Source of the DNA: a virus
DNA: 64,000 bases
Virus record (IMG/VR): IMGVR_UViG_3300046665_000361
Location: 29,011 to 93,010 of that record
Strand: one strand, 5' to 3'
The notes below the pieces were generated by a model. The model was given only the letters and a program-made list of their open reading frames with translations, was not told where the DNA came from and did not search any database. Every line of letters begins with the position of its first letter. The stretch's first letter is position 1. The position numbers and the translations under genes were made by a program. Positions 4,141 through 64,000 of this stretch are shown in pieces.

Positions 4141-4171
4141 TACAAACAACATATCGACCGAGGAGGTCACC

Positions 4172-4456
4172 ATGCAAACTCTTATCACTCGTCCAACCAT
4201 CGCTGACGTTACTAACCTCAACGACATGGTCGCTTACCTGTGCCTCGAAATCAAGAGCGCTAAGGATAAGCAAGAAGCGCTGTTCAAGAAAGCTCTGGTT
4301 ACTCAGTGCTTCTACAAGCGTACCGAACTGCTGGCTATGATCGATAACCTGAATGTCCAGGAAACCGATCTGACCAAGCACATGCATTCCGTGCACTACC
4401 AAGCACTGGAAGTAATGGGCGACGACGACTTCGTTGTCGCTCTGTTGGCTGCTTAA
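4172..4456 (+). CDS. Hypothetical early protein
   Basis: ORF 4136..4456; start moved to ATG 4172 behind a GAGGAGG SD. Confidence 0.75.
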   Translation: MQTLITRPTIADVTNLNDMVAYLCLEIKSAKDKQEALFKKALVTQCFYKRTELLAMIDNLNVQETDLTKHMHSVHYQALEVMGDDDFVVALLAA

Positions 4457-5286: not shown

Positions 5287-5325
5287 CAGCTGGGCGCAAG
5301 CCCAGCTGTATCCATTTCTTTTTTT
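5287..5325 (+). terminator. Intrinsic terminator
   Basis: CAGCTGGGC-GCAA-GCCCAGCTG followed by a T tract. Confidence 0.75.
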
Positions 5326-8294: not shown

Positions 8295-8336
8295 ACAGGA
8301 GAGGCGTAAGCCTCTCCTGTACTCTTCTTTTTTTTT
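8295..8336 (+). terminator. Intrinsic terminator
   Basis: ACAGGAGAGGC-GTAA-GCCTCTCCTGT followed by a T9 tract. Confidence 0.8.
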
Positions 8337-29870: not shown

Positions 29871-29911
29871 GCCCCCGCTTCGGCGGGGGTGAGATCGACT
29901 TCTTTTTTTTT
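29871..29911 (+). terminator. Intrinsic terminator
   Basis: GCCCCCGC-TTCG-GCGGGGGT followed by a T tract. Confidence 0.7.
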
Positions 29912-39261: not shown

Positions 39262-39303
39262 GATGCCCGGTTAACGCCGGGCGTCACCCACTTTCTTTTT
39301 TTT
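39262..39303 (+). terminator. Intrinsic terminator
   Basis: GATGCCCGG-TTAACG-CCGGGCGTC followed by a T tract. Confidence 0.65.
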
Positions 39304-54136: not shown

Positions 54137-54946
54137 ATGCAAACTAAAGAGAAATGTTGGGTGTTTACCCTGACGCACCTCCCTACTGGGAATTTTTTTG
54201 TAGGTATCACAGCACACCCCAATGTCCAACAAGCCACATTCAAGAAGCTCTTGGAAAGCGGAAAGTATAACGATATCCGATTCCAGAAGCTGTTCAAATC
54301 CTGGAGTGAAATGGAGTACGGCCTAGACCAGTACCCTGACGAAGAACAGGCGAATGTAGAAATGCAAAATACCCTCTTATCATGTAAGGGGAATCCTAAG
54401 TGCTTGAATAACCCCGTGTTTCCAGCAGGCGGTTACATCATGGCAGACCACCCGCACTTCAACCAGTACATGAATCGGTTCGAAGGTATATCGTGCGTCT
54501 ACGTCTTGAAGAACAAGCGTACAGGACATTTCTACATCGGGAGCACCAAGTCTGTCTCTACCCGTACCAAGACTCACTTGCGGGAATTGAAGGAAGGTGT
54601 TCACCACTGTTACAAACTTCAGAAAGACTATCGCGGTCTCTCTGGAATTGAATTTGGTGTATTTCCAGCAGGAGAAGTCGCTGATGCCAGAAAGCTCGAG
54701 CAGAAGATGCTCGATATGTTCCATGGCAAAGACGGCTGCTTAAACTCCTCCAACTCAGCGTACAGCAATTACAATGAAGTGCCTGAAGAATGGAAGCACC
54801 GCTATTACAAAGGGTCGATGCGTGACCCCAATGTGAAGAAGCGTCCAAAACCTGCGTCGAGACCTAGCCAACCGTCTAGCGTCACTAAACCTTCGTATGC
54901 GTTCAAACAGCCGCTATTCGCAAAATCCAGGAGTGCGTTACTTTGA
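54137..54946 (+). CDS. GIY-YIG endonuclease, probably a free-standing homing endonuclease
   Basis: CVYVLKNKRTGHFYIGST...R...H...E...N, plus a second degenerate copy WVFTLTHLPTGNFFVGIT. Confidence 0.82.
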   Translation: MQTKEKCWVFTLTHLPTGNFFVGITAHPNVQQATFKKLLESGKYNDIRFQKLFKSWSEMEYGLDQYPDEEQANVEMQNTLLSCKGNPKCLNNPVFPAGGYIMADHPHFNQYMNRFEGISCVYVLKNKRTGHFYIGSTKSVSTRTKTHLRELKEGVHHCYKLQKDYRGLSGIEFGVFPAGEVADARKLEQKMLDMFHGKDGCLNSSNSAYSNYNEVPEEWKHRYYKGSMRDPNVKKRPKPASRPSQPSSVTKPSYAFKQPLFAKSRSALL

Positions 54947-56720: not shown

Positions 56721-56766
56721 CATACAGCCGGGGCGTGAGCCCCGGCTGTAGTAGCTTCTTTTTTTT
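56721..56766. terminator. Bidirectional hairpin family copy
   Basis: CATACAGCCGGGGC-GTGA-GCCCCGGCTGTA followed by a T tract. Confidence 0.72.
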
Positions 56767-61108: not shown

Positions 61109-62926
61109 GTGAGTGACGATACAGTGGACGACCAACGTCCGTCCGAAGAAACAACGCTGCCACAACCTCTGGCACCGGCTCCTGTTGAAGCGACGTTCAA
61201 CGATGATGACGAGGTCCTTCCTGTTGAGCTCGTCGGTACTGACCCGCATCAGCATCAGGAAGTCCCGCAGGAAGTTCCGACTGAAGAGTTCGTTGCTGTT
61301 AAGGTATCTTCGCCAGTAGCTGATGACGAAGAAGCTCACTCTGAAGCGCCGGCGGACGATGCTGATGACGAAGCCGATCCTGAACCCTGGGGCGGTGAGT
61401 ACAAAGGCAACCCGAACGTCAAAGAAGATCTCAAGATCATCGAACCGTTGAGTGACGAAGAGCTCAAGAATCTGGCGAAGAACGGCAGCCTGCTGCTGTC
61501 CAACTTGTCGGTATCTGAACTCAACCTCATTCATGATGCGATCCAGGTCCAGATCAGCGCCAAACAGGCCGAACGTCAGGAGCTGGCTGAGAAGGGCATC
61601 GCCCAAGGCTATTATGCCATTGAGGCAGATTTGCCTGATGGTAGCAAGAATATCATCTTCGTTACCGAACATGAGCGGCGTGCCCTGACGATCCTCAGCG
61701 AATACGAAGCGACCCTGCGTCAATCGGCAGATGACGATCTGTTCGACGACAGCGAGTGGACCAACCGTCCTACTTACGGTGATGTTAAGGTCATCCCTGG
61801 GCGGCTGGATCACAGCAAGCATAAGGACCCGGTTCTTCGTATTCAGGGTAAGCTTGGCTTGGCTACGTCGTACAGCACCCCATTCTGGGGTAGCGGTATC
61901 CATCTGGTGATCGAAGGTGGTGCAGCGCTCGATGAGCTGAGTCTCAACGAACGTATCCTGCAAGAGAAGTCCGAGAGTGGTCGTCTGAGCTCTGGCTATA
62001 TCTACGGCGCCGGTGCTCTGTATCTGGTTCGTCCTGTCGTTGATTATGTCCTCGGTCAGGTCAAGAGTAGCACTGCCGGGGTTCAAGATCCTGACGAGCT
62101 CAAGAATCTGATGTTGATCACTGACATCGAACCGATGGCTACCGCAATGGCAGCCACGATGTATCCGGACGGTTATCTGTTGGAGCGGCCGTGCCTGACC
62201 ACCCAAGGTGGTTGCGGTAACATCGAACGCGGCAGAATCAACCTGCGCCGAATGGTGATGGTCCGCCGCTCGAAGATCACCGATGATCAAATGCAGTTCA
62301 TGACCAAACGGTCTGGCTACGTTGATCCATCGCGTATCCGTGAATACCAGAAGTCCATTCGTGCTGAAGTGAGTCGTCTGGTAGAGTTGGATGCTGGTCT
62401 GTTCTTGCGTCTGCGTGTACCGACTATTGCTGACTACGAACGTCTGGCCGATTCCTGGTTACAGACCATGGATGCGCGTGCACGTCAGGTGAGTCGTTCC
62501 GGCGGTTCCTTGGCTCAGCGCCAAGCGTACATGCTGAAGGCTCAAAACGTAGCGGTGGTAATGGCCTACGGTCACTGGATCGACGGTGTCCTCGAAAAGG
62601 ATGACGAAGATGGTCAGTTGGTCGCTACCGTGGAGCGGTACTACGGCGAGGATGCTGAAGAGCGCTTCAAGGCCGATAAGCAAATGGACCGTGTCCTTGA
62701 GTCACTTGCCAAACGTCCTGATCTGACAGACAAGATCAGTAACGCTCTGCGCAAGTTCATCTCTGACATGACGCTGTCGACACCGACGGTGCCAAAGACC
62801 ATTTGCAGTCAGTGTGGCAAACCTGTGTCCGGCGATGAAACATCGACCCACCCACACCTGGTCAATGTTAACTCACTTGAACTTTTTTTTACCCTTCTCC
62901 ACCAACGAATCCTGAGGCGAAGTTAA
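61109..62926 (+). CDS. Putative tail/baseplate assembly chaperone
   Basis: Acidic N-terminus, C..C zinc pairs (PCLTTQGGC, CSQC) and LRVPTIADY. It ends ...ELFFTLL over a T8 run. Function is inferred. Confidence 0.55.
   Translation: MSDDTVDDQRPSEETTLPQPLAPAPVEATFNDDDEVLPVELVGTDPHQHQEVPQEVPTEEFVAVKVSSPVADDEEAHSEAPADDADDEADPEPWGGEYKGNPNVKEDLKIIEPLSDEELKNLAKNGSLLLSNLSVSELNLIHDAIQVQISAKQAERQELAEKGIAQGYYAIEADLPDGSKNIIFVTEHERRALTILSEYEATLRQSADDDLFDDSEWTNRPTYGDVKVIPGRLDHSKHKDPVLRIQGKLGLATSYSTPFWGSGIHLVIEGGAALDELSLNERILQEKSESGRLSSGYIYGAGALYLVRPVVDYVLGQVKSSTAGVQDPDELKNLMLITDIEPMATAMAATMYPDGYLLERPCLTTQGGCGNIERGRINLRRMVMVRRSKITDDQMQFMTKRSGYVDPSRIREYQKSIRAEVSRLVELDAGLFLRLRVPTIADYERLADSWLQTMDARARQVSRSGGSLAQRQAYMLKAQNVAVVMAYGHWIDGVLEKDDEDGQLVATVERYYGEDAEERFKADKQMDRVLESLAKRPDLTDKISNALRKFISDMTLSTPTVPKTICSQCGKPVSGDETSTHPHLVNVNSLELFFTLLHQRILRRS
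62884..62890 (+). other. Candidate -1 ribosomal frameshift heptamer T TTT TTT
   Basis: In-frame codons CTT TTT TTT ACC. The -1 frame is open from 62881 to 63375 and is closed by TGA at 62878. Confidence 0.6.
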
Positions 62927-62964
62927 TTACGGACGCTGGCGTTTTCAGCCACCACACAGGCAAC

Positions 62965-63375
62965 ATGTGGTTCGGTAGAGACGTCAACCCGTATGAGCCA
63001 GGGAACCCAATCTACAATTTGATCATGAACGAAAACATCAAGGACGATTGGACTCAGAACCTCGCATTCATGGAAGCCTACGACACGGCATTCAAAATCC
63101 ATGACCACGAGAACTCTGACCATCCGTTCTCGATCATCGGCATGCACCCGGCAGAAGATGCAACCACAGGCGATAGCATATCCCACCTGATGGCTGAGTT
63201 GATCTCCTGTCGGATTCCTGAGGTGACTAACACTCCATTGTTGCAGTTGATGGAGCAGTACCCTCGCTGGCGTCTGAACAAGCTCATTGAGCAAGGGAGG
63301 AAGGCTAGGAACAAGGAAGAGAAGGCCCTCGAAGGTGTTGAGCGGTCTATCGATAATGCAATGCCAGATGCGTAG
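62965..63375 (+). CDS. Hypothetical protein, probably the frameshift extension of 61109..62926
   Basis: Lies in the -1 frame of the upstream gene and is open back to the slippery site; its SD is weak. Confidence 0.65.
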   Translation: MWFGRDVNPYEPGNPIYNLIMNENIKDDWTQNLAFMEAYDTAFKIHDHENSDHPFSIIGMHPAEDATTGDSISHLMAELISCRIPEVTNTPLLQLMEQYPRWRLNKLIEQGRKARNKEEKALEGVERSIDNAMPDA

Positions 63376-63388
63376 CGTTGGGTGGAGA

Positions 63389-63424
63389 CAGCATACAGCG
63401 GGGCTTGCGCCCCGCTGTATGCTG
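63389..63424. terminator. Bidirectional hairpin family copy
   Basis: 16-bp perfect stem CAGCATACAGCGGGGC-TTGC-GCCCCGCTGTATGCTG between convergent genes. Confidence 0.75.
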
Positions 63425-63427
63425 CAC

Positions 63428-64000
63428 TCAGTTGAAGATAGAAGCCAAGGACTTGCGTTGACGCCACAGCAGGTTCTGTTCTGCGATGGTGAACTTTTCC
63501 TTGTTGGCAACCACGTAGGCATCCAGCTTCTTCACAATACCGGCCGTGGCATTGTAGATGTTGCCGCTGACGTTGTTGCGGTTGTCAGTCAGATGACCAA
63601 GGCATTGCTCGATAGCCGTAAAGCCGCCGAGAGTCGAAGACAGCAACTTCAGGAAAGGAGTCAGCAACTTCAGGTAGACTTCTTCCAGACCTGGGTTCAA
63701 ACTACCGCCTGTGAACTCCTTGATCTTCTTCAGAGCCGGTTCAGTACGACCCTTAGCCCAACCTATCGTCTCGCTGATATCGCCAGCCCAAGGAGCGATG
63801 GTGTAGTTGGTCATCAGAGTGTTGAACTGCTGACGGTCAAGTGTCGACCGGTCATTGGTCCAGCTCTTGTACTTGCTGCGAATCACGCCAGCCTGTGCCT
63901 GGAAGTCGGTCAGGCTTGCATGGTTGACAGCGCCTGTCGGATTGTAACCGTAGTCACGAGCCAACTTCATCAGCTTGACGCTAGTCATGTCAACCAGTTT
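63428..64000 (-). CDS. Hypothetical, possibly virion, protein; probably 5'-truncated
   Basis: The frame stays open past ATG 63988 to the window edge. Confidence 0.6.
   Translation of the reverse strand, partial: KLVDMTSVKLMKLARDYGYNPTGAVNHASLTDFQAQAGVIRSKYKSWTNDRSTLDRQQFNTLMTNYTIAPWAGDISETIGWAKGRTEPALKKIKEFTGGSLNPGLEEVYLKLLTPFLKLLSSTLGGFTAIEQCLGHLTDNRNNVSGNIYNATAGIVKKLDAYVVANKEKFTIAEQNLLWRQRKSLASIFN

Follow-up and report, generated by a model that had tools for sequence, protein, structure and literature searches.

A conserved slippery heptamer and an open -1 frame at the end of the phiKZ gp77 (cg18) gene suggest programmed frameshifting in nucleus-forming jumbo phages

The 64-kb stretch of viral DNA analysed here, hereafter the window, corresponds to positions 29011-93010 of a 93-kb IMG/VR record (IMGVR_UViG_3300046665_000361; 37% complete), and its plus strand carries a homologue of phiKZ gp77, a core gene (cg18) of the Chimalliviridae, followed by a smaller open reading frame (ORF). 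The gp77 homologue (61109..62926) codes for 605 amino acids and closes with GAA CTT TTT TTT ACC, ten more codons, and the stop, placing 11 codons between the second of two adjacent Phe codons and the stop. The run of eight T residues (T8) at 62883-62890 has the frame-0 phase CT|T TTT TTT, giving an X_XXY_YYZ heptamer, T_TTT_TTT, at 62884-62890; the other nine Phe codons of this gene are all TTC. Just upstream, the -1 frame is closed by a TGA at 62878-62880, after which 165 codons are open from 62881 to a TAG at 63373-63375. Because this TGA shuts the -1 frame 5' of the heptamer, a longer overlapping gene cannot supply the downstream domain. A one-base slip would produce a protein of 755 residues (594 + 161) with the junction LELFF|YPSPPTNPEAK, and the ATG of the downstream ORF (62965..63375) has an AGG four bases 5' as its sole Shine-Dalgarno (SD)-like element. 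An earlier reading of these letters, made without database searches (the sequence-only reading), had proposed a programmed -1 frameshift at this position; its description of the 605-residue ORF, the in-frame heptamer 11 codons from the stop, the TGA, the -1 frame that opens at the site and runs into the downstream ORF, the 755-residue fusion with its junction, and the weak SD is borne out throughout.

Profile matches and gene order identify both parts. The 605-residue protein matches phrog_4585 (E 1.3e-62) as far as profile position 541 of 551, and the frame-0 stop is thus the normal end of the family; the downstream ORF matches phrog_12109 (E 1.7e-13), and both profiles have no function assigned in PHROG. 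In tblastn searches the 605-residue protein finds 134 jumbo-phage records at ~20-26% identity, PHIKZ077 included, and the local synteny is that of phiKZ, with virion RNA polymerase beta (gp80), gp79, gp78, gp77, and a small ORF on the same strand. Together, the two profile matches and the synteny place the window pair in the phiKZ gp77 family, or cg18, with a phrog_12109 extension; at E<=1e-3, the phrog_4585-type family counts 1,736 representatives. Prichard et al. 2023 (PMC10299810 supplement) list cg18 in their core-genome table as phiKZ gp077, Goslar gp081, and RAY gp267, a 'hypothetical protein', and the downstream ORF is absent from that table.

Orthologous pairs with the same synteny are phiKZ gp77 (PHIKZ077) with PHIKZ076.4, RAY gp267/gp266, and 201phi2-1 gp136/gp135, together with Goslar gp081; like the window, these have an in-frame T_TTT_TTT at an FFTL motif and an open -1 frame. 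Unlike these shared features, the protein sequence has diverged, with the window protein only ~24% identical to phiKZ gp77, and the two genes are entered in the records as separate hypothetical proteins whose starts differ and are not homologous. For the downstream ORF, the start chosen by annotators varies from record to record and falls at different depths within the domain: phiKZ gp76.4 begins ~85 codons into it, and in RAY (locus L077, position 2610) and Desertfox (L071, 2412) the annotated overlapping ORF begins 28 codons 5' of the slip site. Other searches were negative. A megablast of the region against phages gave no match, and neither did tblastn with the window extension, which is too divergent. 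As single proteins, the two parts gave no Pfam match at E<=0.1, and a scan of all 21 members of each part's alignment at E<=1 revealed no tail assembly chaperone (TAC) family and no recurring family. An NCBIfam scan of the gp77 part found no relevant family, a PDB sequence search returned only noise, and a search for shorter relatives found none; one for near relatives yielded at least eight hits.

To describe the site across the family, we compared 83 loci: the window, 15 annotated GenBank isolates (phiKZ, DT01, Xoo-sp14, PCH45, Halocynthia JM-2012, Moabite, Asesino, Desertfox, Yong MS32, vB_pir03, 201phi2-1, SPN3US, RAY, Lh1B, and pVa-21), 63 IMG/VR loci, and four metagenome loci. An in-frame T_TTT_TTT, T_TTT_TTC, or T_TTT_TTG is present at an invariant FF(T/I)L motif in 72 of them. 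The T runs are 5-8 long, often T6 or T7 and 6-8 in nearly all loci, and the second Phe codon is TTC in 26 loci, including SPN3US and Lh1B. From the site onward, all loci that do not run off a contig have 149-201 stop-free codons in the -1 frame, whereas the +1 control frame is mostly closed within 1-20 codons; in phiKZ, the open -1 frame covers the entire 218-nt 'intergenic' gap of the record (positions 4171-4388 of locus L001), and the short and long products there would have 533 and ~687 residues. When the loci are grouped into 28 lineages less than 50% identical to one another, each of the 28 has its downstream domain in the -1 frame. TTT serves as the first Phe codon in 28/28 lineages but makes up only 29% of the genes' other Phe codons (log10 P ~ -18). 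The codon before it has T as its third base in 25/28 (P = 3e-12), although it may specify L, T, V, I, A, G, Y, or F. These P values are indicative only, as the lineages share ancestry; synonymous sites have long been saturated at such divergence. The pattern recurs in all 83 loci and is far beyond chance, and the conservation of heptamer, relative frame, open -1 frame, and encoded domain across the Chimalliviridae supports the recoding proposed by the sequence-only reading.

The frame-0 tail that follows the T run is itself conserved in the family, and no in-frame fused form is present among the best 150 of the 1,736 representatives, and these 150 all end at the frame-0 stop. Tail length varies, with 44 codons after FF in PCH45 (L067) and 37 in Moabite (L069), compared with 8-21 elsewhere, such that the dual-coding overlap in these two phages is ~110-130 nt. 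The pVa-21 locus (L079, ~2600) reads GTA CTT TTT ACG and is the only one lacking a run of six or more T residues; its -1 frame opens three codons 5' of the site and is open for ~150 codons. It has either a weaker slip site or another route to the downstream domain.

In the clade to which the window belongs (the window together with loci L004, L080, L082, and L083), the proteins are 48-59% identical and all members keep GA(A/G) CTT TTT TTT ACC CT at the site. The segment 62881-62895 (ACTTTTTTTTACCCT) is invariant throughout the clade, and a 22-nt segment, GAACTTTTTTTTACCCTTCTCC, is identical in L004, whose protein is 52% identical. All five independent assemblies have T8, and a homopolymer length error, which the sequence-only reading had raised as a concern, is thereby excluded. 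At the position of the window ATG (62965), the start of the downstream ORF, the closest relatives have GTG, TTA, CTG, and CAC, and L082 and L083 have no canonical start.

The -1 stretch also has the character of a coding sequence. The -1 peptides align family-wide from just 3' of the site and share an H-x5-FG motif, which lies 5' of the annotated downstream starts. In most lineages, including phiKZ, Xoo-sp14, PCH45, Moabite, L082, and L083, the -1 frame offers no ATG, GTG, or TTG from the preceding stop to this motif, and the distance from that stop to the heptamer is often just 1-4 codons. In the segment that separates the frame-0 stop from the motif, substitutions among related loci number 42:25:105 at -1 codon positions 1, 2, and 3, a third-position excess characteristic of translated sequence; in the window clade, the corresponding counts for the 62927..62964 region are 43:58:89.

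Table 1. Coordinates, in the window, of the gp77/cg18 homologue, the putative slip site, and associated features
Feature	Coordinates	Strand	Basis
Frame-0 gene, phiKZ gp77 homologue (Chimalliviridae core gene cg18), 605 aa	61109..62926	+	phrog_4585, tblastn, synteny, AlphaFold2 (AF2), cg18 table
TGA in the -1 frame directly 5' of the slip site	62878..62880	+	upstream opening of one codon
Candidate slippery heptamer T_TTT_TTT (Leu-Phe-Phe in frame 0)	62884..62890	+	sequence; 72/83 loci; codon-usage tests
Dual-coding overlap: frame-0 tail TLLHQRILRRS* and -1 Pro-rich linker YPSPPTNPEAK	62890..62926	+	sequence
-1 extension, 161 codons and stop: linker, then conserved helical domain (phrog_12109), helices 96-157 of the extension	62890..63375	+	phrog_12109, AF2, BFVD
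Would-be 'intergenic' stretch in which the -1 frame encodes a conserved peptide (..LITDAGVFSHHTGN), part of the H-x5-FG motif region	62927..62964	+	alignments, substitutions
ATG with weak AGG, possible secondary internal start, window phage only	62965..62967	+	not kept in closest relatives
Perfect 15-bp hairpin with 4-nt loop, separating the extension from a convergent minus-strand gene (63428..63988)	63390..63423	.	sequence

Residues 1-99 of the 605-residue protein are acidic and rich in Pro, Glu, and Asp, and are predicted to be disordered (predicted local distance difference test score, pLDDT, <50); the length of this N-terminal segment of ~100 residues (61109-61400) differs greatly among relatives. 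An AF2 model built on a 21-sequence alignment has a confident core spanning residues 100-605 (predicted template-modelling score 0.73), and its terminal helix (589-604) holds FFTLL, so that a slip would replace this helix. The model also has a four-Cys site formed by C362, C369, C566, and C569; of the two CxxC pairs described by the sequence-only reading, C566/C569 is such a pair, whereas C362/C369 is Cx6C. The extension is modelled as helical (pLDDT 73; C-terminal helices >84), with its last 60 residues confident. Against BFVD, all eleven top matches of the extension (probability >=0.99) are small uncharacterised proteins, with those named coming from the jumbo phages Psa21, Phabio, RP12, Eowyn, and Goslar; these are presumably the orthologous downstream ORFs. 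Foldseek searches against the PDB and VIA-align wide searches matched neither model to a solved structure above background, the 605-residue model being searched undivided. Resemblances of the extension to MerR-, bHLH-, and sigma4-like helices (Z<=5) were not taken as evidence. The sole firm functional statement is therefore an architectural one, namely a common 594-residue body with two alternative C-termini.

We consider a programmed -1 ribosomal frameshift the best explanation of this site, and a probable one on the comparative sequence evidence. From the conserved site, frame, and coding signal, we infer that most ribosomes would translate gp77/cg18 in frame 0 and stop at 62926, yielding the 605-residue protein with its last helix ...FFTLLHQRILRRS, and that a minority would slip when the P and A sites hold the two Phe codons. 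Both tRNA-Phe could re-pair one base back on U_UUU_UUU, and the slipped ribosomes would then read UAC CCU..., a Pro-rich linker, and the conserved helical domain of ~150 residues. The resulting 755-residue product would have residues 1-594 in common with the short form and exchange its terminal helix for a new domain. By analogy with other phage long and short protein pairs, the slip would most likely serve to keep a small, constant share of the protein in a long form, in which the extra domain is tethered to the gp77 body. Ribosomal slippage fits the heptamer's phase, the short runs of 5-8, and the 26 loci whose second Phe codon is TTC, which is read by the same tRNA as TTT but gives a shorter T run.

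Several observations weigh against this reading, in addition to the limit on the P values given above. Ten of the 83 loci have A_TTT_TTT or G_TTT_TTT, with a non-canonical first base, and pVa-21 has CTT TTT only (T5). A downstream stimulatory structure is unsupported, with folding z-scores of -1.5 to +0.7 relative to shuffled sequences in eight lineages; the window clade consensus fold has no covarying pairs, and no SD-like motif was seen upstream of the slip site. The window ATG at 62965 could also make most of the domain separately. As no stimulator was found, the slip would be expected to be of low efficiency, which is typical of other unstimulated phage sites, and a stimulatory element is absent from some known -1 frameshift sites.

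Transcriptional slippage and independent initiation are the other routes by which the domain could be made, and both are weaker explanations than ribosomal frameshifting. If the phage or host RNA polymerase stuttered on the T run and added one U, the same long protein would result. The homopolymer of 6-8 T in nearly all loci would suit such a mechanism, as would the lack of a ribosomal stimulator, and phiKZ-like phages have unusual multisubunit RNA polymerases. However, bacterial RNA polymerases slip appreciably only at runs of about nine or more, and the runs here are short (T5-T8, often T6 or T7) and have not been lengthened by selection; the 26 loci that retain a TTC second codon shorten the run further while suiting tRNA re-pairing. 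We regard transcriptional slippage as unlikely.

The downstream domain could instead belong to a separate gene, initiated on its own from ATG 62965, from odd or unannotated starts, or by termination-reinitiation, with the T run simply satisfying a protein requirement for Phe-Phe. The weak AGG before the window ATG, the separate small ORF in all 15 annotated GenBank records, and the uniform ending of the best 150 representatives at the frame-0 stop can all be read this way, and T4 gp26 provides a precedent for C-terminal FF as a property of the protein itself. Against this, the start is not conserved in the window clade (ATG, GTG, CTG, TTA, CAC), a canonical start 5' of the conserved motif is missing in most lineages, and the annotated starts lie at differing depths inside the domain. 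Separate initiation also leaves unexplained the TTT in 28/28 lineages, the T that precedes it in 25/28, the constant -1 frame, and a stop-free stretch that begins right at the heptamer, and we judge it quite improbable. An artefact, either a homopolymer error hiding a true T9 and one continuous gene or a decaying pseudogene, deserves virtually no weight, for although homopolymers are error-prone in some sequencing chemistries, the same frame relation in 83 loci from isolates and many unrelated metagenomes, with a conserved frame-0 tail that reaches the end of the family profile, means that it is already refuted by the comparative sequence data.

Lambda G/GT and P2 E/E+E' encode tail assembly chaperones and represent a conserved -1 frameshift of long-tailed phages. 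As proposed for the window pair, the upstream gene has an X_XXY_YYZ slip near its 3' end that yields a minor, C-terminally extended form, and the arrangement is conserved despite weak sequence conservation. They differ in that no sequence or profile relation links them to the window pair and no fold match was found; the lambda-type heptamer is G_GGA_AAG rather than the U_UUU_UUY of the window family, and the window gene is four to five times larger and not beside tube or tape-measure genes. Lambda G/GT-type genes lie between the tail tube and tape measure genes, and the G part is ~100-150 residues. Capsid genes offer a second parallel: in T7 gene 10A/10B a -1 frameshift takes place where the capsid gene ends, and, as proposed for the window, a U-rich slip site with Phe codons near the stop of a long gene gives a low-abundance longer isoform. 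The T7 extension is short and part of the capsid protein, whereas the window extension is a conserved domain of ~150 residues annotated as a separate gene.

The sequence-only reading had gone further and likened the pair to lambda G/GT or P2 E/E' chaperones, pointing to the terminal FF and a downstream PLLQLMEQ segment, and had suggested comparison with T4 gp26/gp51. More broadly, the pair could be the missing Chimalliviridae counterpart of either a G/GT-type tail assembly chaperone or a T4 gp26/gp51-type hub chaperone, with the extension bringing a tube or hub partner to the body. Beyond the formal analogy, in which a -1 slip near a 3' end yields a long form, the homologue in the DT01 record is labelled gp26-like, 24% of the members of an ESM Atlas row at 0.90 carry PF12322, and the 201phi2-1 record flags the neighbouring gp138, not gp136, as a virion protein by mass spectrometry. 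Two collinear local hhalign matches (E ~1e-3) were also found, one of which aligns CxxCG..H.H..FFxLL at both C-termini. However, 21 members yielded no TAC or PF12322 profile match at E<=1, PF12322 finds nothing at E<=10 in phiKZ, DT01, Xoo-sp14, 201phi2-1, SPN3US, or the window's own record, and a deeper profile-profile comparison gave a probability of 0.3%. The 605-residue size, the neighbouring RNA-polymerase, gp79, and gp78 genes, and the lack of a fold match likewise argue against a chaperone of either type, and we think this identity improbable. Membership of the lambda G/GT type fails on profile, size (605 vs ~130 residues), and gene position, a P2 E/E'-type identity is unsupported, and nothing was found to support chaperone-like character in the terminal FF or the PLLQLMEQ segment.

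The T4 comparison leaves a fainter trace. T4 gp26 and gp51 are baseplate hub assembly chaperones of PF12322 (Leiman et al. 2010, PMC3004832). T4 gp26 (L075, 7803-8429, minus strand) ends CPECG..H.H..FFELL, akin to the gp77 family, in which CxxCG...H.H...FFxLL likewise stands at the very C-terminus. The gp26 hidden Markov model (HMM) touches the C-terminal part of 5/171 family members at a consistent place, compared with 4/513 shuffled sequences at scattered places. Profile-profile comparison with gp26/gp51 gave a local E of 1e-3 and a probability of 11-20%, but 0.3-1.6% with other alignments. T4 gp26 differs in its length of 208 residues, there is no HMM match at the curated cut-off, and T4 gene 26 makes its two products (26 and 26') by internal initiation, without a frameshift. 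We therefore keep from the proposed gp26/gp51 comparison a faint and unstable C-terminal resemblance, which is inconclusive, whereas the PF12322 HMM and the deeper profile comparison did not confirm it. The C-terminal FF of T4 gp26 is encoded TTC TTT, without a T run, and if the FF motif is ancestral, the T run was added in the Chimalliviridae. T4 gene 25 begins in the -1 frame, overlapping the gene 26 stop (TAATG).

The window has seven runs of seven or more T; only that at 62883-62890 sits within a long conserved gene, and the remaining six lie in intergenic DNA, at gene edges, or, for the T7 run at 54193-54199, inside a plus-strand stop-to-stop frame of 287 codons that is a candidate ORF only. 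The five other plus-strand runs of T7-T9 (5319-5325, 8328-8336, 29903-29911, 39296-39303, and 56759-56766) are intergenic or at gene edges and have a common context of (C/T)TTC, T7-9, and then GT or AT; they may represent a phage transcription signal, either a terminator tail or a promoter element. There are no runs of seven or more A on the plus strand of the window. The hairpin that follows the extension (Table 1) probably marks the end of the transcription unit, although a terminator scan did not call it, since a T tail is lacking.

None of the 15 annotated GenBank records has a joined coding sequence or a mark at the site, and we found no mention of a frameshift in phiKZ-like gp77/cg18 in the searchable literature, the core-genome paper and a 2025 review included, in keeping with the sequence-only reading, which was aware of no such description. 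phiKZ-like phages are among the best-studied giant phages, serving as models for the phage nucleus and as therapy candidates, and a core of 68 genes has been catalogued for them. Should the frameshift prove real, cg18, a core gene of unassigned function, makes two proteins, and GenBank annotation has mistaken a conserved domain of ~150 residues for a small gene with arbitrary starts, while the core list does not contain this domain; the correction would extend to well over a hundred genomes. It would also be a large and deeply conserved -1 frameshift outside the tail chaperones, apparently without a recognisable stimulator. We can tentatively imagine, while holding it rather unlikely, that the long and short forms of cg18 constitute an unrecognised essential assembly or regulatory device of nucleus-forming phages, with its stoichiometry set by the frameshift and with the extension as a hidden additional core domain; one candidate is a tail or baseplate chaperone pair with a fold unrelated to TACs. 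Mutants of the slip site and mutants making only the long form would provide a handle on the function of cg18.

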